The notes: generated from the sequence alone by a model not told the origin. DNA of 38,114 bases from an uncultured Bacilli bacterium (GCA_947628545.1 CANRAJ010000001.1:1-38114); one strand, 5' to 3'; positions 8,118 to 29,785 are shown, counted from the stretch's first letter. Numbers and translations are program-made.

Positions 8118-8723
8118 CTATTTTAAGACGCGAGCCAGCCTGGCCAAACTTCTTTGCTTTTTACGAGAGATTTCGGCTTGGGAATATCCTAGAATTTTGC
8201 CAATTTGTTTTTGTTTGATTGGTTCAGTATTATCCAAACCAAAAGTCATTCTTATAACCCTTTCATTAACAGGCGATAGAGTTGCAAGGGCCTCATTTAA
8301 ATTTGCGATTAATTCTTTTTCTTCATAAGCATCTTCAATTTCTCTTTCCCCACTACTGGCATCAACATAAAGGGTTTCATAACTAATGGAATTTAAATAA
8401 TATTTATGGCGAATATAATTATAAAGACGGGCAAAAATACCATGCAAAGCATAAGTGGAAAATTTGCAGCCTTTGGTATCATTAAATGTATCAACCGCAA
8501 TGATTAAGGCTTCAAGTCCTAAAGAAAATAAATCATCTAAATCGTTTCCAAACTTATAATATTTGGCTAAAATCGCGTAAATAACTAGATGAATATTATG
8601 CGTAATTAATTCTTCCCGCATTCCTGGTTCCCCAGCCCAGAAGCGATTAAAATAATCCTTTTGCACATCACTAGGTAAGGCATCAATATTAAGATTTTGT
8701 TTAATATAATTAATGCTATTCAT
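8118..8723 (-). CDS. Sigma-70 family alternative RNA polymerase sigma factor (regions 2 and 4 only)
   Basis: 201 aa. Region 2-like segment DLFSLGLEALIIAVDTFNDTKGCKFSTYALHGIFARL and C-terminal region 4 HTH KQKQIGKILGYSQAEISRKKQRSLARL. Too short to contain a full region 3. Confidence 0.75.
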   Translation of the reverse strand: MNSINYIKQNLNIDALPSDVQKDYFNRFWAGEPGMREELITHNIHLVIYAILAKYYKFGNDLDDLFSLGLEALIIAVDTFNDTKGCKFSTYALHGIFARLYNYIRHKYYLNSISYETLYVDASSGEREIEDAYEEKELIANLNEALATLSPVNERVIRMTFGLDNTEPIKQKQIGKILGYSQAEISRKKQRSLARLARVLK

Positions 8724-22395: not shown

Positions 22396-22813
22396 TTAAT
22401 ACCAACTCCTGCTTTGCAAACATTTCTTTTTCTTGCTCCTTACCTAAAGTATGATCATAACCCAGTAAATGCAGTAAACCATGAACGGTTAAAAAAGCCA
22501 GTTCCCGGATCTCGCTATGCCCATATTCTTCGGCTTGAACTTTCATTTGAGGAATAGAAATATATATCTCCCCCAACTGCCGTATATTATACTCCAATTT
22601 AGCATTATCTTCAAATGCAAATGATAAAACATCCGTTGTTCGATCAATATGCCGATATTTTTGGTTTAATTCATGCACCATAGCATCATCGGTTAAAATT
22701 AAAGTAAAATATGAGGCCTTAACCCCTTCCATCTTTAAAGTCCGCCTTATTATTCTTTTTAAATAATGATATTTTCGATAACCATATAAATCGACAATTG
22801 TAAATTTATTCAT
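22352..22813 (-). CDS. ybeY: rRNA maturation endoribonuclease YbeY
   Basis: Zinc-binding motif HGLLHLLGYDH. The ATG at 22813 overlaps the upstream stop (ATGA). The ORF-track N-terminal extension to 22879 overlaps the VanZ-like gene. Confidence 0.85.
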   Translation of the reverse strand: MNKFTIVDLYGYRKYHYLKRIIRRTLKMEGVKASYFTLILTDDAMVHELNQKYRHIDRTTDVLSFAFEDNAKLEYNIRQLGEIYISIPQMKVQAEEYGHSEIRELAFLTVHGLLHLLGYDHTLGKEQEKEMFAKQELVLNGFKRTKKTQTNGD

Positions 22814-23430
22814 CAGATTCTTATCACTCCTAAAGTTTTTAAGATATATAAAATAATAAGGAGAATAATTACTAAACAAATAAAATTATAAATGCCATCC
22901 TTTTGGAAGATTCGCGGCAAATGATTTTTAACGGCCACAAAAGCGATATATAAAAGATATCCTATTACGCCCCCTAAAACATTTAAAATAATATCATCAA
23001 TATCAAAAGCCCGGCCAATATTTAATTGCACAAATTCCACAGTTGCACTCACAATGCCACTAATAATTAGAGCCGGAAAAATATTTTTCGATTTAATATA
23101 ATCGGCAATAAAATAGCCAAACGGAATAAAGACTAAAATATTTCCTACGACATTATAATAAAATAACCGACTCCCAAACTCATATCTTAAGATTTCAGTA
23201 AAAGGAATAAGATTAATTCCCGAACCCCGATTTAATTCTACTTTCGTTAATAATTGAAAAAGTAAAAAGATATAAATAACCGCTAAAATATTAAAAAATT
23301 CTTTGTATAAACTCATTTTTTCGCGATGCGTTCGCCAGTAAAAAAAACGTAATGAAATCATAGTTACTAAAAAAATCATAATTACCGGCCAATTATCATT
23401 GATTGTCCCCTTGATTGTTTCCCATATCAC
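22813..23430 (-). CDS. VanZ family membrane protein
   Basis: 205 aa, multi-TM, with NLIPF..., NILVFIPFGY, EFVQLNIGRAFDIDDIILNVLGGVIGY, the typical VanZ-like signature. Confidence 0.7.
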   Translation of the reverse strand: MIWETIKGTINDNWPVIMIFLVTMISLRFFYWRTHREKMSLYKEFFNILAVIYIFLLFQLLTKVELNRGSGINLIPFTEILRYEFGSRLFYYNVVGNILVFIPFGYFIADYIKSKNIFPALIISGIVSATVEFVQLNIGRAFDIDDIILNVLGGVIGYLLYIAFVAVKNHLPRIFQKDGIYNFICLVIILLIILYILKTLGVIRI

Positions 23431-24592
23431 TATTATCAGTCCCTTCTATGTTCATTTCTTCAATTTCTTGTTCGGTGCTTATTAATTCATTTACGACGAT
23501 AAATAATTCTATATTCATTGTACTATTATTTACTGATTTTTTCAAAACTTTTTTATCAATTATCGTATCTTTAGAATGAAGTTTAACTTTTAAGCTTTCT
23601 TCAGCCTTTTTTAGGCCTTCTTGTAAGGCTTGTTCTTCATCAAAAGTTTCTTGCTTTCGAACCATTTCTTTTTCAGTTTCTAAAAGAAGCCGGTAATCAA
23701 AAAGTTTTAGAAGAGTTTTATAGTTACTAGTAAAATAGGCAAAGCGTTTTTGTAAAATCCGGTTTTGATTTTTCCCATTATCCCAAACTAAATTATATTT
23801 TTTATTTCCCGTCGCCACATCGATGTTATGCGTAAAAGGAACTTTAACACTTACCGTATACCAAGTATGAGCATAAACCTCGCCCGCCGCACAAACACGC
23901 ATCTTTTCGGCTTCATTATAAGTAATAATTCCACTTATTAAAATATCCCCTTCTCTAACATAATCATTAGGGCGAACTAAGGCCTCCCCTTTAACTAGGC
24001 GCATATTACTAATCGTTCCTGCTTTACTCGCCACAATATGACACTTTTTAGTATCTTTACTTAAATCCGTAATAATTCGCTCTTCAATCCGCACATTATA
24101 AACCATTCCTTTAACTTCGAATTCTAGCCAATCAATTTTATCTGGATATTTATCTAGTATTTCTTCTTTAACTTTTTGCAAATAACGATAACTTTTTTTA
24201 AAAGTTAATTTTTTAATTCCCGCTTCTTCTAATTCTGTTAAAACCAATTCCCGAATTTCTTTATTTTCGTGAATGACTTTAACATCGACAATTAAATTAC
24301 TCCCTATAATAAGCAAAATTAACCCGATAAAAAAACAAATAATTAATTCCCGATATTTAATAAATATATTTTTTAATTGATATATCCCAATATCTTTTAC
24401 TTTCCGAAATTTATAACTAACTAAATATTTTTGTAATTTAGGATAATCTGCTTCCTTAATTTTTAAATAAACCTCGTCCTTTTCATATTTAATAGCCAAA
24501 ATCGGTAATTTTAAATAAGCCAATTTTTGAGTAAATTTATAATAATCATTCACCGGTGTTTTAACCCAAAGATAATGATTATGCATTTTCAA
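23396..24592 (-). CDS. yqfD: Sporulation protein YqfD
   Basis: 398 aa with one central TM helix. It follows a YqfC-like gene with overlap, matching the conserved yqfC-yqfD pair upstream of ybeY-dgkA-era. Confidence 0.6.
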   Translation of the reverse strand: MKMHNHYLWVKTPVNDYYKFTQKLAYLKLPILAIKYEKDEVYLKIKEADYPKLQKYLVSYKFRKVKDIGIYQLKNIFIKYRELIICFFIGLILLIIGSNLIVDVKVIHENKEIRELVLTELEEAGIKKLTFKKSYRYLQKVKEEILDKYPDKIDWLEFEVKGMVYNVRIEERIITDLSKDTKKCHIVASKAGTISNMRLVKGEALVRPNDYVREGDILISGIITYNEAEKMRVCAAGEVYAHTWYTVSVKVPFTHNIDVATGNKKYNLVWDNGKNQNRILQKRFAYFTSNYKTLLKLFDYRLLLETEKEMVRKQETFDEEQALQEGLKKAEESLKVKLHSKDTIIDKKVLKKSVNNSTMNIELFIVVNELISTEQEIEEMNIEGTDNSDMGNNQGDNQ

Positions 24593-24824
24593 ACTCCAAA
24601 TTAGTTATTTGGCCTTGCAATAATAATTCATGTGGTAACATTTTTTTAATAAATAAATCTTTTCCCTGAATAATTAATTTAAATTGTTCTAAAGTTAAAA
24701 TAATTTTTGTATCCGTTAATAAATCTAAAGTCAAATAATTAAATATATAGAGGTAATTTTCATAAAACGCAATATAATAATTTTTATCATATAAAAAATT
24801 AGTAAGGTTATCTTTTAAGTGCAT
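24579..24824 (-). CDS. yqfC: Sporulation protein YqfC (YabP/YqfC family)
   Basis: 81 aa. The pattern ...ILTLEQFKLIIQGKDLFIKKM....LLLQGQITNLEF resembles the YabP/YqfC family. It overlaps the yqfD start. Confidence 0.55.
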   Translation of the reverse strand: MHLKDNLTNFLYDKNYYIAFYENYLYIFNYLTLDLLTDTKIILTLEQFKLIIQGKDLFIKKMLPHELLLQGQITNLEFENA

Positions 24825-24843: not shown

Positions 24844-24873
24844 ACAATATATGCTTTTAAACTAAAAATATGG
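24844..24873 (-). promoter_or_regulatory. Sigma-E-type (mother-cell) promoter candidate for yqfC-yqfD
   Basis: Minus strand: CCATATT, 13 nt, CATATATT, compared with the B. subtilis sigma-E consensus (-35 ATATT, -10 CATACA-T). yqfCD is recalled as sigma-E dependent in B. subtilis. Confidence 0.4.
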
Positions 24874-24878
24874 GCAAG

Positions 24879-24904
24879 AAAAAAAGAGCATGTGCTCCTT
24901 TTTT
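24879..24904 (-). terminator. Terminator closing the bacteriocin operon
   Basis: GAGC-atgt-GCTC hairpin, extended by A/T pairs and followed by a U-run, immediately after the peptide B stop at 24905. Confidence 0.5.
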
Positions 24905-25066
24905 CTAACCAACGCAATAAGAATTGGTAATATAACGCCGTAAGACGCTGCCAATGGTTTGACCGATTTTTAAAATGGTCGTGGCCATTTTAGTTACGGC
25001 ATTAATCATGGAAGTGGTAATGCTTCCACCAACAATGCACACTAGTTCATTATTTTTTAACTCCAT
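24905..25066 (-). CDS. Double-glycine-leader bacteriocin precursor, peptide B (53 aa; predicted 39-aa cationic mature peptide)
   Basis: MELKNNELVCIVGG|SITTSMINAVTKMATTILKIGQTIGSVLRRYITNSYCVG. The leader fits the EL..I.GG consensus. An AAGGAGGT RBS lies 5 nt upstream of the ATG at 25066. The ORF-track start at 25162 is an out-of-context extension over peptide A. Confidence 0.75.
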   Translation of the reverse strand: MELKNNELVCIVGGSITTSMINAVTKMATTILKIGQTIGSVLRRYITNSYCVG

Positions 25067-25077
25067 TCTGTACCTCC

Positions 25078-25218
25078 TTATCCGTTGTTGCATTTTAGTG
25101 GGTTCCGATAGCCATCGAGAATACCAATGGCTAAAAGTAAAACCCCACCGATGGCTAGCCAAAGACCGGCTCCACCACCTGATACCTTTTGTAATTCTTG
25201 GTCATTTAAGTTATTCAT
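25078..25218 (-). CDS. Double-glycine-leader bacteriocin precursor, peptide A (46 aa; hydrophobic mature peptide). Not in the ORF track.
   Basis: Manual translation: MNNLNDQELQKVSGG|GAGLWLAIGGVLLLAIGILDGYRNPLKCNNG. An AAGGAGTG RBS lies 6 nt upstream of the ATG at 25218. The TAA stop at 25078-25080 is embedded in the RBS of peptide B. Confidence 0.7.
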   Translation of the reverse strand: MNNLNDQELQKVSGGGAGLWLAIGGVLLLAIGILDGYRNPLKCNNG

Positions 25219-25222
25219 TACA

Positions 25223-25633
25223 TCACTCCTTTATAAATTGAATAATTTTTTGACTAATCTTTTCTTGATTATAGTAAAAACATACTTTGATTATTTCATT
25301 AACATAACTTGGTTTAGCAATATTTATCGTAAATGTTTGATAGTTGATTTTTTCGATTTCGTCATATTTTATCTCGCTGATTTTTTGGATAGTATAGTCA
25401 TATTTTTTATCATTTATTTTTAAGATAGCCCCATCGTGCAATGTATCAGAGTATGTAAGGGGCACATCAATATTTAAATTAACTCCATCACTCACCGCGA
25501 TTAAAAATAGACGATCATATAACTTATGGTTACAAATATAAATGGTTAAGAAAGTAGTTGTCAAAACGACGATTATTAAAGCCCACCAATTATGAGGTTT
25601 AAGATTTAACAGCCGTTGGTAATTATTTTGCAT
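25223..25633 (-). CDS. Short (136 aa) HlyD-like bacteriocin export accessory protein
   Basis: An N-terminal TM helix (NWWALIIVVLTTTFLTIYI) is followed by a beta-rich segment. Its pattern (VPLTYSDTLHDGAILKINDKKYDYTIQKISEI) resembles HlyD/ComB barrel-sandwich ends without the coiled coil. It overlaps the ABC gene stop by 11 nt. Confidence 0.5.
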   Translation of the reverse strand: MQNNYQRLLNLKPHNWWALIIVVLTTTFLTIYICNHKLYDRLFLIAVSDGVNLNIDVPLTYSDTLHDGAILKINDKKYDYTIQKISEIKYDEIEKINYQTFTINIAKPSYVNEIIKVCFYYNQEKISQKIIQFIKE

Positions 25634-27680
25634 CTAAGGCCTCGAAAGTAATAACTTTATCAAATAAATCATCTTGGTTTTTATGGGTAACATAAATTAA
25701 AGTTTTTTGGGGAAAATAAGTTTTTAAGTTGGTTATGATTTGTCTTTCAAGCGCGTAATCAACCTCGCTTAAGGGCTCATCTAAAATAATAATTTTGGCC
25801 TCCTTTAATAAAGCCCGCGCCAGAATGATGCGCTGTTTTTCCCCACCCGAGATGGTTTTATGATAATTATTAACAATGGTCTCATAACGCAACCGTTTTT
25901 TATTAATTACCTCATCCAAAAGACAAACATGGGCAATTTCGTTAACTTTGGCTAAGGGAATATTGCGTCCTAAAACTAAATTATTCCAAATAGTATCGGT
26001 AAAAATAGTTTCATTTTGGGAAACATAAGTAATGTTTTCCCGAATGGTTTTAAGCGAACAATCTAAAATATTTTTGCCATCAATTTCAATAGTCCCCGTA
26101 AAATCACTATACATTTTAGCAAATAACTTGCACATCGTGCTTTTACCACAGCCACTGGAACCTTTAAACATTACTTTAGCCCCCGCGGCAATTGCAAAAT
26201 TAACATCTTGCAATACTAAATGATAATCATTATAACTAAAACTAAGATTTTTTACCATTACGCTGCCTTCATTAAAACTAATGCGTTTGCCCATTTTCTC
26301 CGGAGCAATACTTAAAAAATCACTTATCTTGGTAAACGTGGCCTTAAAAAAATTAAATTTAGGTAATGTATCAATTAAATTTTTCACCGGATTTAAAAAG
26401 TAAGTCATAAGCGAAGAAAAAGTGAGCAAATTAGCCAAGGTTAAATCTTGCTGTAAGATAAAGTAAAAACCACAGGATAGAATACTAAAGTAACCAATTT
26501 CGCTAATGCCGTTTTTTAAATTTTCTTCTTTTAAAACAAACTCATTTAATTTAAAATTATCATAAAGTAAAATGGCTAATTTTTCTTCAATATTTTTTAA
26601 GATTGACGATGTTAAGTTTAAATTTTTAATCGCCGGATAGGCCTCGATTGCCTCCAATAAATAATTATTAAACTCTTCTTCATAAGTTATATTTTGATAG
26701 GCCTTACGATAAATTGGGCGCATCGTTAATAAGCCAATAATAAGATAAATTGTAACAACAAGAAAAAGAATTAAAAACAATTTACTATTTATCCATATTA
26801 AAAGTGGAATAGTCGAAAACATTAAGATGAAATCTAAAAGAAAATTAATAAATAATTCCGTATATAACGCTTTAATATTATTAAGTTCTTTTACGCGCGT
26901 CATTATCTCCGCACTACTTCGACTACTCATACTCGTAGAAGGGATTTTAAATAAATGATTGAGAAAATCGGCGAGCAATAAAACATCAATATTTTTATTT
27001 AAATGATTTTCCAAATAACTTCGCAAATAAGTAAATGTTATTTTAAACAAAGTTACAATAGCAAAAACCAAAATAATGAGTTTTAAATAAGCACCATAAC
27101 CGACCTCACCTAAGGCCTCGAGCCCAATTTTAAAATAGTAACTGGCGGCAATGGTCGTTAAAGTAAGTAAAATACTTATCAAGACAATTTTGACAAAAAG
27201 CATTTTTTCTTGTTTTAAAATATCGCCCCAGATGAGCCAAATACTTTTTCCCTTGGCTAAATAAACAATTTTTTCTTGGGGATAGAACATAAGTAATATT
27301 TCGGAAAAAATGGTTGCAAATTCTGAGCGCTTCATCTTTACTTTGCCTTTAGCGGGATCCATTAATATAACACTAGTTTTCGTAATTTCATAAAGCACCA
27401 CGAAATGATTAAAACCATTTTTATATTTAACATGCGCAATAGCCGGTAAAAAAATATTGGCATCATCCAAAGTGGCCGTTTTTATTCCTTTAGTAGCAAA
27501 ACCATATTTTTGGGCGGCCTGAAATAAATTAAAAGCTGTCGTACCATCTTTAGTTGTTTTCGTATCTAATCTAATACGTTCCATCGGCACATAACCATCA
27601 TAATACTCAATGATTGAGGCCAAACAACACGCCCCACAATCTTGCAAATCATGTTGCCGGACAATTACCATTTTCGCCAT
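25623..27680 (-). CDS. Peptidase C39 domain-containing bacteriocin-processing ABC transporter (ComA/LagD type)
   Basis: The N-terminus has QHDLQDCGACCLASII (catalytic Cys), NHFVVL (His) and MDPA (Asp). This is followed by 6 TM helices and an NBD with GSSGCGKST, ISGGEKQRIILARA and IIILDEP. A GGGAGGAAG RBS favours the ATG at 27680. Confidence 0.9.
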   Translation of the reverse strand: MAKMVIVRQHDLQDCGACCLASIIEYYDGYVPMERIRLDTKTTKDGTTAFNLFQAAQKYGFATKGIKTATLDDANIFLPAIAHVKYKNGFNHFVVLYEITKTSVILMDPAKGKVKMKRSEFATIFSEILLMFYPQEKIVYLAKGKSIWLIWGDILKQEKMLFVKIVLISILLTLTTIAASYYFKIGLEALGEVGYGAYLKLIILVFAIVTLFKITFTYLRSYLENHLNKNIDVLLLADFLNHLFKIPSTSMSSRSSAEIMTRVKELNNIKALYTELFINFLLDFILMFSTIPLLIWINSKLFLILFLVVTIYLIIGLLTMRPIYRKAYQNITYEEEFNNYLLEAIEAYPAIKNLNLTSSILKNIEEKLAILLYDNFKLNEFVLKEENLKNGISEIGYFSILSCGFYFILQQDLTLANLLTFSSLMTYFLNPVKNLIDTLPKFNFFKATFTKISDFLSIAPEKMGKRISFNEGSVMVKNLSFSYNDYHLVLQDVNFAIAAGAKVMFKGSSGCGKSTMCKLFAKMYSDFTGTIEIDGKNILDCSLKTIRENITYVSQNETIFTDTIWNNLVLGRNIPLAKVNEIAHVCLLDEVINKKRLRYETIVNNYHKTISGGEKQRIILARALLKEAKIIILDEPLSEVDYALERQIITNLKTYFPQKTLIYVTHKNQDDLFDKVITFEALDAK

Positions 27681-27776
27681 TTTTCTTCCTCCCTTCACTT
27701 ATACTATTTCCTAAATTAAAGGTATTTCCTTTTTTTAAGACCTAACTTTTTTTAAGTTAATTAATGTTTTTTTTTA

Positions 27777-27825: not shown

Positions 27826-28317
27826 ATGATTAATAAACAGAATTTATGGTTTGTAACTTTGTTTTCACTAATTTTAGTTTTAGGTATTTACTATGTTTCG
27901 ATGGATGATGAAGCCCTGGCCACCCTCGCGGGAGATAATGATGCTTCCAAAGAAACCATCGAAATTAAAGAAAATGATGTTTTAGTTGCCTTAAGAGTGG
28001 CCGAAGATGAAGAAATCATGAAAGAAATGCAAACCTATCAAGATATTTTATTAGATAATACAGCCACACTCGAAGAAAAAAATGACGCTTATGAATCATT
28101 GCAGGCCTTAAATTCCGCGAAAGGCGAAGTTGAAAAAATTGAAAAATTAATAAGTGATACCTATAACTATGATTCTTTTGTAAAAATTAATGGCGATAGT
28201 ATAAGTGTTGTTATCTCCGCCCAAGAACACAACAAAGAAATTGCTAATAAAATAATTCGGTCGATTCAAGCCCTATACGATAAACAAAAATATATCACGG
28301 TTAAATTTGAAAAATAA
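27826..28317 (+). CDS. SpoIIIAH-like sporulation protein
   Basis: 163 aa. N-terminal TM helix NLWFVTLFSLILVLGIYYVS, an acidic linker and a C-terminal domain (...SFVKINGDSISVVISAQEHNKEIANKIIRSIQ...), resembling the SpoIIIAH family layout from memory. Confidence 0.5.
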   Translation: MINKQNLWFVTLFSLILVLGIYYVSMDDEALATLAGDNDASKETIEIKENDVLVALRVAEDEEIMKEMQTYQDILLDNTATLEEKNDAYESLQALNSAKGEVEKIEKLISDTYNYDSFVKINGDSISVVISAQEHNKEIANKIIRSIQALYDKQKYITVKFEK

Positions 28318-28395: not shown

Positions 28396-28602
28396 ATGAA
28401 AAAAAGAATCTTAACCGAAAGAGAACAAGAAGTCTTTGATTTACTTGTCTTAAATAAATCAACAAAAGAAATTGCTAGTTTTTTAGGTATCAGTGAAAAA
28501 ACTGTCCGCAATCATATTTCCAATGCTATTCAAAAATTAGGTGTTAAAGGACGAGCTCAAGCAGTAGTCGAATTAATAAAAATGGGTGAACTAGCAATTT
28601 AA
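28396..28602 (+). CDS. gerE: LuxR/GerE-type HTH transcriptional regulator (stand-alone DNA-binding domain)
   Basis: 68 aa: LTEREQEVFDLLVLNKSTKEIASFLGISEKTVRNHISNAIQKLGV. Size and sequence are typical of GerE. It lies near a gerM-like gene, as in B. subtilis. Confidence 0.6.
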   Translation: MKKRILTEREQEVFDLLVLNKSTKEIASFLGISEKTVRNHISNAIQKLGVKGRAQAVVELIKMGELAI

Positions 28603-28659: not shown

Positions 28660-29595
28660 ATGTTAAAGAAATCAGCATTTCGCAGAATTATTTTGGCTTC
28701 CCTAGCCCTTTTAATCTTACTCATAATTTATTTTTTCCCAAGTAAAGAAACTTATATCGATGAGACTCTTACTTATGTTGATCAAGTCGAAATGCCTATT
28801 TTTTTAATTGATCAAAATGATTATGTGGCTCGCACAACCATTGTCAAAAATAAAACGGAATTAAATGATATAATTAAAGAAATCATCGATGCTTTAACCA
28901 TTGGAGGTTCGAAATCTAGTTATATTCCCCAAAGTTTTAAGCCCTTAATTCCCGAAGGAACCAAATTATTAGATTTTAGCCTCGATGATGGCCTTTGTAA
29001 ATTAAACTTTAGTAAAAATTTTTTAAATGTTGAGGCCCAATACGAAGAAAAAATGATCGAGGCATTAATTTATTCTTTAACCGAATTAACGGAAATTAAA
29101 CAAATTATGCTTTTTGTAGAAGGCCAACAATTGACCAAACTCCCCCATTCGGGGAAGAAACTACCTAATACCTTAGATAAAAATTATGGTATTAACAAAA
29201 TCTATAATTTAGATTCCATTAAAGATACGAGTAAAACGACCATTTATTATTTGAGTAAAAATAATGATTTTTATTACTATGTTCCCGTTACCGAAATAAC
29301 TAATGATCATACTGAACCAGTTGAGGTTATTATCAACAATTTAAAATCGACTCCCGTTTATCAAACTAATTTAATTAGTTATTTGACGGCTTCGGCTAAT
29401 CTATTAAGTTATGAATTGCTGGAAAATAGTATATCTTTAAGTTTTAATAATTATTTACTGGCTAATTTAGAGGAAAAAGAAATCTTAGAAGAGGTTAAAT
29501 ATTCAATTGCCTTATCGCTACGCGATACTTATGATATTACCGAGGTAATATTTAATGTCGAAGACGAAGAAATCGCAAAAGTCGAAATTAACTAA
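28660..29595 (+). CDS. gerM: GerM-like spore germination lipoprotein/anchored protein (GerMN domains)
   Basis: 311 aa with an N-terminal anchor. Two repeats of the GerMN-type pattern are present, for example IIDALTIGGSK...IPEGTKLLDFSLDDGLCKLNFSKNF. Confidence 0.55.
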   Translation: MLKKSAFRRIILASLALLILLIIYFFPSKETYIDETLTYVDQVEMPIFLIDQNDYVARTTIVKNKTELNDIIKEIIDALTIGGSKSSYIPQSFKPLIPEGTKLLDFSLDDGLCKLNFSKNFLNVEAQYEEKMIEALIYSLTELTEIKQIMLFVEGQQLTKLPHSGKKLPNTLDKNYGINKIYNLDSIKDTSKTTIYYLSKNNDFYYYVPVTEITNDHTEPVEVIINNLKSTPVYQTNLISYLTASANLLSYELLENSISLSFNNYLLANLEEKEILEEVKYSIALSLRDTYDITEVIFNVEDEEIAKVEIN

Positions 29596-29708: not shown

Positions 29709-29785
29709 GTCCTCGTAGCTCAGCAGGATAGAGCAATCGCCTTCTAAGCGATCGGTCAGGCGTTCGAATCGCCTCGAGGATACCA
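29709..29785 (+). tRNA. tRNA-Arg (anticodon UCU), CCA encoded
   Basis: Manual cloverleaf: acceptor GTCCTCG/CGAGGAT, D arm GCTC..GAGC, anticodon arm ATCGC-CTTCTAA-GCGAT, T arm AGGCG-TTCGAAT-CGCCT, discriminator A, then CCA. Confidence 0.85.

Follow-up and report, generated by a model that had tools for sequence, protein, structure and literature searches.

In this study, a four-gene operon was analyzed in a stretch of DNA from an uncultured rabbit-gut bacterium of the Bacilli (GCA_947628545.1, CANRAJ010000001.1:1-38114). The whole stretch of 38,114 nucleotides (nt) is called the window. The operon (24905-27680, minus strand) consisted of four co-directional genes for a C39-peptidase ABC exporter (PCAT), a membrane protein of 136 amino acids (aa), and the precursors of two small peptides, pepA and pepB, whose mature products are called A and B. 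An earlier note on this DNA had described four minus-strand genes followed by a terminator. All of the open reading frames were present, and RNA folding placed a hairpin after pepB. The features of the module, in the order of transcription, were as follows.

27698-27733, minus strand: promoter-like element, layout conserved in orthologous loci
25623-27680, minus strand: PCAT/AMS exporter, 685 aa, with Pfam C39, ABC_membrane, and ABC_tran matches
25223-25633, minus strand: 136-aa single-pass membrane protein, an open reading frame of no curated family
25078-25218, minus strand: pepA precursor, 46 aa (leader 25174-25218, mature peptide 25081-25173)
24905-25066, minus strand: pepB precursor, 53 aa (leader 25025-25066, mature peptide 24908-25024)
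24873-24910, minus strand: intrinsic terminator hairpin, from RNA folding

The genes were tightly packed. The exporter ATG lay 7 nt after the ribosome-binding site AAGGGAGG, the start of the 136-aa gene overlapped the exporter stop by 11 nt, and the spacing was 4 nt from the 136-aa gene to pepA and 11 nt from pepA to pepB. Both peptide genes had their own ribosome-binding sites. The sequence itself showed the gene content, the intact motifs, the A-B pairing in relatives, and the purifying selection.

The exporter was composed of an N-terminal C39 cysteine protease (Peptidase_C39, 7e-36), a six-helix membrane domain (ABC_membrane), and an ATPase (ABC_tran). It aligned over its full length with PCAT1 (PDB 4ry2) at E 3e-95, and with ComA (8hf4) at E 5e-79. 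The three-domain architecture and the catalytic residues were those of PCAT1 from Clostridium thermocellum and ComA from Streptococcus, whereas the substrates differ. The intact Cys/His/Asp triad and Walker motifs reported earlier were borne out. Gln9, Cys15, His92, and Asp108 of the protease and Walker A G507-T515, SGGE 611-614, Walker B D634-E635, and H666 of the ATPase were invariant in 13 aligned orthologues. The exporter thus had an N-terminal C39 domain with its triad and intact Walker A, Walker B, and signature motifs, by which PCAT/AMS proteins are recognized. Its match to TIGR01193 (E 2e-106, 357 bits) was under the cut-off of 523.85, so it was considered a divergent PCAT/AMS member. 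It was also below the curated cut-offs of the NHLP-type exporter and mycoplasma Mbov_0121-type models.

Both double-glycine precursors predicted earlier were found. The pepA precursor consisted of the leader MNNLNDQELQKVSGG (15 aa, with ELQKVSGG) and the mature peptide GAGLWLAIGGVLLLAIGILDGYRNPLKCNNG, and the pepB precursor of the leader MELKNNELVCIVGG (14 aa, with ELVCIVGG) and the mature peptide SITTSMINAVTKMATTILKIGQTIGSVLRRYITNSYCVG. Mature A had 31 aa, a mass of 3152.7 Da, a grand average of hydropathy (GRAVY) of 0.75, and a net charge of +1. It was composed of a hydrophobic helix, the GxxxG motif G17ILDG21, and the tail YRNPLKC28NNG. Mature B had 39 aa, a mass of 4206.9 Da, an isoelectric point of 10.0, and a net charge of +4. 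It was amphipathic, with a hydrophobic moment of 0.63 that was matched by 0.3% of shuffles, and it carried the GxxxG motif G21QTIG25, an RR pair, and Cys37. These values were consistent with the earlier description of one hydrophobic and one cationic peptide. GQTIG (G21-G25) had been correctly named as the GxxxG motif of B. AIGGV and LAIGI, proposed for A, are not GxxxG motifs; the conserved motif of A is GILDG (G17-G21).

The ratio of nonsynonymous to synonymous substitution rates (dN/dS) was compared among the window and the orthologous loci L006 and L007, where the values are rough with dS near saturation. It was 0.10-0.17 for mature A vs 0.35-0.42 for its leader, and 0.08-0.12 for mature B vs 0.34-0.80 for its leader. 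Since the ratios of the mature parts were low relative to the leaders, both peptide genes are real and constrained, with the constraint on the mature part. The precursors were identical in other conspecific contigs. In one low-coverage conspecific contig (L005 1030-1045, window ~25123-25157), 35 nt were deleted from pepA between two TTGG repeats, with a shift of the reading frame; this may be a natural loss-of-function allele or an artefact of assembly.

All related operons had an A-type peptide. In 75 distinct pairs, a B-type gene came straight after the A-type gene; the exporters of the loci concerned were 26-67% identical to that of the window. The A family had the form of a leader with GG, a hydrophobic helix of ~20 residues, and G-[IVL]-[IFL]-[DENS]-G-x-x-[RN]-P-x-x-C-x(0-5). 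The B family had the form of a leader with GG, an amphipathic helix, and [LF]-G-x-x-[LIV]-G-[ST]-x-x-R-R-x(6)-C-x(0-4). GxxxG was present in A in 75/75 pairs and in B in 73/75. Cysteine was equally frequent (A 75/75, B 73/75), with exactly one in each peptide in 64/75 pairs. The cysteine lay exactly 7 residues past GxxxG in 65/75 A peptides and exactly 12 past it in 66/72 B peptides. With a profile built from the relatives, B-type peptides were found beside A in nearly all related loci.

The exceptions clustered in an Onthocola-type clade that had lost the tails from both A and B (L032, L040, L046, L047, L074, and the second pair of L023/L045). In this clade, A had gained a cysteine within GxxxG (GVFCG); B had a cysteine within GxxxG (GCQIG) in some lineages and no cysteine in others. 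Tandem pairs, one Cys-tailed and one of the tail-less Onthocola type, occurred at L023 8410-8983 and L045 4403-4976. An extra unpaired peptide with a double-glycine leader was seen at L029 8674-8808 and L032 7651-7761.

The pepA product matched TIGR03949 (lactobin A/cerein 7B class IIb) marginally, at 23.1 bits against a cut-off of 21.5, with a match to residues 2-32 only. Four A-type relatives scored 15.4-21.2 bits, under that cut-off, and the pepA match to PF10439 (Bacteriocin_IIc) was under the gathering score. The TIGR03949/PF10439 family resembles pepA in the leader and the Gly-rich hydrophobic N-terminal part, and the pepA family tail GxxxG-x-x-[RN]-P-x-x-C is absent from the TIGR03949 model. 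The leaders matched TIGR01847 and ComC-type leader models. For pepB, matches were at the level of the leader only, with no Pfam or NCBIfam family. The mature sequences had not been recognized earlier as any characterized bacteriocin, and in our searches no such match was found for mature A or B. Six characteristic peptide motif strings were not found in the literature searched.

Word-based searches of 5.8 billion proteins returned, for pepB, itself and one 70%-identical protein and, for the 136-aa protein, two homologues. The contigs carrying these first matches were from rabbit-gut ('Lapin') metagenome-assembled genomes (MAGs) labelled 'uncultured Bacilli'. The tiny family suggested by these single-sequence searches was wrong, as synteny-based retrieval and profile searches showed a large one. 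A YqfD scan of Genome Taxonomy Database (GTDB) species genomes gave 27 loci, with labels including uncultured Bacilli, 'uncultured Tenericutes', Candidatus Onthocola stercoravium (Onthocola is Bacilli incertae sedis in NCBI taxonomy), and Clostridium sp. CAG:609. The module, with exporter, ~135-aa protein, and 2-4 double-glycine peptides, was found upstream of yqfC in L006, L007/L014, L022, L023, L029, L030, and L032. A metagenome scan with the exporter alignment added 80 further loci with exporters 26-52% identical to that of the window. Nearly all of these had A- and B-type peptides straight after the exporter, and most had the small protein.

The promoter-like element consisted of an A-tract, GGAAAT, a spacer of ~17-20 nt, and a TATATA-like box, followed by GTGAAGGGAGG (ribosome-binding site). 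The same layout was present upstream of the exporter gene in 11-12 orthologous loci, whichever gene lay upstream, and was common to all loci of the clade. The element occurred once in the window, with 0.07 occurrences expected by chance. It was not flagged by a sigma-70 consensus scan. Its -35-like part AAAGGAAAT resembles the sigma-H -35 box, but there was no consistent sigma-H -10. The consensus sequences of sigma-E, F, G, and K did not fit the element, and it was assigned to no sigma factor. The terminator was a 17-bp hairpin with dG of -20.2 kcal/mol (z = -4.46; 0/200 shuffles as stable) and a U-rich 3' arm, overlapping the pepB stop codon. A simple pattern scan for terminators found none at this locus; the hairpin was revealed by RNA folding.

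The earlier note had called the 136-aa product an accessory protein. The gene is present, and the accessory role is plausible from gene order, single-pass topology, and a weak fold match. No match to the protein was found in Pfam, NCBIfam, or PDB sequences, and the Pfam comparison covered 52 family members at E<=10. A relative with 98% identity is on record, but no exact copy. In the window and L006 and L007, its dN/dS was 0.24-0.33, a rough value with dS near saturation. A profile of the family detected 68 proteins in the word-indexed database. None of these had a precomputed Pfam domain, and the sole source name was 'hypothetical protein' (1 protein). Among 1.84 billion representatives, the family formed 569 clusters at 50% identity (E<=1e-3), and nearly all of the best 150 of the 569 clusters were 120-155 aa long.

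The structure of the 136-aa protein was predicted by AlphaFold2 with a 52-sequence alignment (pLDDT 76.5). The model showed a transmembrane helix at residues 13-35, an extracytoplasmic beta domain of ~90 residues, and a C-terminal helix. In a Foldseek search against PDB, the top matches were mostly membrane-fusion or periplasmic-adaptor proteins of independent families: CusB, Spr0693, MacA, AcrA, MexA, and ZneB. The matches were weak (E 0.02-0.3; 80-85 residues; root-mean-square deviation 3.6-4.7 Å; probability up to 0.99), with nothing at E<=0.001.

HlyD-type accessories (ComB, LcnD, PlnH), MacA, Spr0693, and CusB are likewise encoded directly after the ABC gene, and an ABC gene followed by a single-pass membrane protein is the order of ComA-ComB, LcnC-LcnD, and PlnG-PlnH. 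The topology is shared as well, with a cytoplasmic N-terminus, one transmembrane helix, and an extracytoplasmic domain, and the membrane-fusion beta-barrel domain superposes weakly on the predicted beta domain. Unlike these proteins, the 136-aa protein had no sequence similarity to any HlyD Pfam model, and the HlyD family was absent even at E<=10 from the Pfam matches listed for the 52 members. Members of the HlyD/membrane-fusion group are recognized by the sequence family, a coiled-coil hairpin, and lipoyl and beta-barrel domains, and by these features the 136-aa protein falls outside the group. Since it has only 136 aa, about a third of the ~450 aa usual for an HlyD-type accessory, there is room only for the transmembrane helix and one beta domain. 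Its model showed one compact beta domain with no long helical hairpin or second domain, and it can be read as having neither the coiled-coil hairpin nor the lipoyl domain. Because of the gene order, the translational coupling to the exporter, and the fold match, the 136-aa protein is most likely a minimal membrane-fusion-like accessory, predicted to keep only the membrane anchor and the beta-barrel. It could also have a role in immunity or producer protection. For the accessory proteins of class IIb bacteriocin systems, a possible part in immunity and/or secretion has been described (PMC2850506).

The results on balance favored a chromosomal, vertically inherited system in which two peptides of the class IIb bacteriocin type depend on a PCAT. 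The earlier two-peptide reading was strengthened by the 75 adjacent pairs in the same order, GxxxG in both peptides, and the pepA score marginally over the TIGR03949 cut-off, which covers the leader and N-terminal part. We infer with high confidence that A and B are cleaved and exported. There are good grounds for their joint action, and antimicrobial activity is held with moderate confidence.

In the proposed mechanism, one transcript would run from the promoter-like element to the hairpin and encode the exporter, the 136-aa protein, and the two precursors. The C39 domain (Cys15/His92/Asp108) would cut each precursor after Gly-Gly, and the ABC moiety would export the products. A would be released as a transmembrane-like hydrophobic helix with a short polar tail and B as a cationic amphipathic helix. 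The two would act as one unit, with the helices packing through GILDG and GQTIG. This packing would bring the single C-terminal cysteines close, and an interchain disulfide may form. The heterodimer would insert into and permeabilize the membranes of related Firmicutes, probably via a membrane-protein receptor, as for other class II bacteriocins. The translationally coupled 136-aa protein would assist the exporter as a minimal membrane-fusion-like accessory and might protect the producer.

One cysteine at a fixed distance from GxxxG in each mature peptide suggested a disulfide between A Cys28 and B Cys37, and this bond is speculative. As a universal trait, it was rejected on the two Onthocola-type lineages in which B has no cysteine. 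A disulfide-linked two-peptide bacteriocin was not described in the literature searched, and we know of no unmodified two-peptide bacteriocin with a disulfide-heterodimer architecture. In the class IIb review, the word cysteine is never used and disulfide occurs once (PMC2850506).

Class IIb systems are characterized by double-glycine leaders of 15-30 residues that are removed by a dedicated ABC transporter, GxxxG or a similar helix-helix motif in both peptides, and an immunity gene in the same operon as both peptide genes (PMC2850506). In the window, pepA and pepB were adjacent, with a single terminator after pepB. The double-glycine leaders of 15 and 14 aa, for which cleavage is predicted, and the intact C39-ABC gene in the operon were rated as in agreement with the class, and GxxxG was present in both peptides. 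There was no immunity gene in the operon and no extra open reading frame between promoter and terminator. Elsewhere in the window, no immunity Pfam family was found. The class IIb-like label of the earlier note thus stood for the pair, the leaders, and the GxxxG motifs; the immunity gene required of the class was lacking, a gap that had not been flagged.

The window operon shares with lactococcin G, plantaricin EF/JK, enterocin 1071, and carnobacteriocin XY two adjacent precursor genes in an operon, double-glycine leaders, and a dedicated C39-ABC exporter gene with a membrane 'accessory' gene after it. The mature peptides are also alike: each has GxxxG, 30-40 residues, a predicted helix, and a membrane-active character. 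The window operon differs in that it has no immunity gene and its mature sequences matched no characterized pair in our searches. It also differs in the one positionally fixed cysteine of each peptide, in the 136-aa size of the accessory (usually ~450 aa), and in a chromosomal, deeply syntenic, rpsU-linked locus that is not strain-variable.

A third gene was found in ~19 of the more distant loci. It was 45-59 aa long, and its start overlapped the end of B by 12-15 nt. Its positions were as follows.

L042 5732-5908: third gene, start overlapping the end of B; also in L077, L078, L081-L083, L088, L092-L095, L104, L105, L111, L114-L116, L118, L121, and L124

The third-gene product lacked a double-glycine leader; its N-terminus was basic, and a single transmembrane helix containing a conserved Pro was followed by [FY]-x-x-G-x-Y-x-G-x-x-x-R. 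It had no Pfam or NCBIfam match, and the gene was absent from the window clade. The B profile detected the third-gene proteins, and the third-gene profile detected pepB at E 3e-4 in the window open reading frame set, where it matched only pepB. Since the profiles detect each other, the third-gene proteins were considered leaderless membrane-anchored B paralogues. A conserved cysteine was rejected, as only 6/19 keep a cysteine at +12. From its sequence, the third-gene product is plausibly a decoy-type immunity protein that would pair with A in the producer membrane.

The neighborhood of the module was also investigated. The flanking genes named earlier, SpoIIIAH-like and yqfC-yqfD, agreed with the Pfam and NCBIfam matches, the latter being TIGR02856 and TIGR02876 on the yqfC/yqfD pair.

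27826-28317, plus strand: SpoIIIAH-like gene, the divergently transcribed upstream neighbor outside the module (PF12685, 9.8e-12)
24579-24824, minus strand: yqfC, the downstream neighbor (YabP Pfam match)
23396-24592, minus strand: yqfD, the downstream neighbor (YqfD Pfam match)

As had been stated, there were no signs of flanking repeats or mobility: the only repeats were AT-rich and attributable to chance, and neither the 136-aa protein in plasmids nor the DNA of the peptide genes in phages gave a match. An old insertion between sporulation genes or a lineage-specific accessory locus had been proposed, with a comparison of presence and absence in relatives as a check. The comparison showed that the module was widespread and sat in the same place in many uncultured gut Bacilli species, with a constant downstream and a variable upstream context. 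Neither proposal agreed with this distribution. In 45/69 distinct loci, with S21 sequences that were very divergent, rpsU lay within 1 kb downstream and on the same strand. It was usually followed by yqeY, and yqfC-yqfD came next in several loci. The gene order of B. subtilis is rpsU-yqeY-...-yqfC-yqfD. The upstream neighbor differed by lineage: SpoIIIAH-GerE-GerM, IleRS with a 147-aa gene, RsgI-like, or ribulose-phosphate epimerase. In the window, L006, L007, and L022, rpsU-yqeY was absent from this locus, and the operon therefore lies directly beside yqfC, between SpoIIIAH and yqfC. The module is old, chromosomal, and vertically inherited, and the sandwich came about secondarily, through rearrangement around it. 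Where the module was missing upstream of yqfC, the genomes had no rpsU there either and had unrelated neighbors; the absence holds for that position only.

Several points weigh against the two-peptide bacteriocin and its proposed parts. Deep vertical synteny with rpsU and strongly conserved mature peptides are unexpected for bacteriocin loci, which are usually patchy, fast-evolving, strain-variable accessory weapons. The host is a gut anaerobe, the window showed no thiol oxidase gene, and the B peptides without cysteine in the two Onthocola-type lineages mean that the disulfide cannot be universal. The accessory gene was absent from ~13 related loci and is therefore not essential to the system, and its membrane-fusion fold match was weak (best E 0.017, TM-score ~0.35-0.39). 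No histidine kinase, response regulator, or inducer peptide was found nearby. The window operon has no immunity gene, though class IIb operons are said always to carry one (PMC2850506).

A fuller form of the two-peptide bacteriocin combines these elements. It would consist of a heterodimer joined by A Cys28-B Cys37 and positioned by GxxxG, as an ancient, vertical, non-mobile trait of uncultured gut Bacilli. Relatives would have decoy immunity by the B paralogue, and the window clade would be protected by the 136-aa protein or by absence of the receptor. This combination is offered tentatively and is doubtful as a whole.

An alternative is that the exported A/B heterodimer serves the producer, either in signalling between cells or as a membrane-inserted factor linked to growth state or sporulation. 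This would explain the near-core retention beside rpsU in 45 of the 69 loci with such divergent S21 sequences, and it fits the sporulation genes as neighbors, the conserved promoter-like element that is not sigma-70-like, the missing immunity gene in the window clade, and mature peptides more conserved than both the leaders and the 136-aa protein. The ComC/ComDE, BlpC/BlpHR, and PlnA pheromone systems have an adjacent cognate histidine kinase and LytTR regulator, whereas none was found in the window or the close orthologous loci. The peptides, at 31 and 39 aa, are also long, membrane-active in character, and GxxxG-bearing, unlike known pheromones with double-glycine leaders. In addition, the B-like membrane-anchored third gene of distant relatives is most easily read as immunity, and several related genomes have no module upstream of yqfC, so it is not strictly core. 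A role in producer physiology is rather unlikely, though it is the main alternative. In the most distant accessory-containing relative (L042 1-2861, a 289-kb scaffold), a hybrid histidine kinase, a 120-aa protein, and an HD-domain response regulator were encoded upstream, which could be a regulatory link without a counterpart in the window clade.

A and B might also be two independent one-peptide (class IId) bacteriocins sharing one exporter. Loci with several bacteriocins served by one PCAT are common, and the extra double-glycine peptides of L029 and L032 would suit this arrangement. It is improbable, as A and B co-occurred strictly adjacent and in the same order in all 75 distinct pairs, the Cys-bearing tails were lost together in one clade, and the chemistry of hydrophobic A and cationic amphipathic B is complementary. 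That the operon is a decaying non-functional remnant, as the missing immunity gene and the deletion in L005 might suggest, is very improbable given the intact catalytic and ATPase motifs, ribosome-binding sites, and terminator, the dN/dS far under 1 for pepA, pepB, and the 136-aa protein, and the identical precursors in other conspecific contigs.

The PCAT-dependent two-peptide system is of a known kind in that it has a double-glycine peptide pair with a dedicated C39-ABC exporter. Peptide B, the 136-aa partner, and the third gene are new here and belong to no curated family. The fixed single cysteine per peptide, the miniature accessory, the lack of an immunity gene in the window clade, and the deep chromosomal synteny are also new. 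The peptide pair, the 136-aa partner, and the third small gene represent a large unstudied family in gut and rumen metagenomes, from bacteria without cultured representatives, that is absent from Pfam and NCBIfam. A bacteriocin-type module that a deep lineage has kept in one place next to rpsU, in many cases with no immunity gene, clashes with the view of bacteriocins as strain-variable weapons and raises the question of how the producer protects itself. If the 136-aa protein is a stripped-down membrane-fusion adaptor, it would define how little a Gram-positive PCAT requires of such a partner. The mature peptides, at 3.15 and 4.21 kDa, are short and unmodified and can be made synthetically, so activity, synergy, and the proposed disulfide are directly testable.

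Some further observations concern the surroundings. In the conspecific MAG GCA_947628445.1 (~97% identical), homology to the window broke just after the terminator (window 24876-24884; L001 10757-11038; L013 7716-9709). The gene after the operon there starts MEENKRR... and encodes a hydrophobic N-terminal segment. The yqfC of this MAG was preceded by a 630-aa paralogue and a segment corresponding to window 14080->7252. The break reflects either a genuine rearrangement or an assembly error.

A VanZ-like membrane protein gene (window 22813-23430) lay between yqfD and ybeY and overlapped both by ~35-65 nt. It was present in nearly every related locus with a long enough flank, with or without the module; in B. 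subtilis, phoH occupies this position. After the SpoIIIAH-like gene came genes for a 68-aa GerE/LuxR-type regulator (28396-28602) and a GerM-like protein with a Germane domain (28660-29595), and a tRNA-Arg(TCT) at 29709-29785 just past the latter. The SpoIIIAH-like/GerE/GerM-like trio was upstream of the module only in the sub-clade of the window. Of the small genes at 151-675, 947-1318, and 8118-8723, one encoded a protein whose N-terminus had a methylation motif like that of type IV pilins, one a putative spore-coat protein resembling YlbD, and one a member of the sigma-70 family with 201 aa. Around them lay housekeeping genes, including topoisomerase IV/gyrase-type subunits, transketolase, LexA, a rhomboid protease, LspA, and IleRS.

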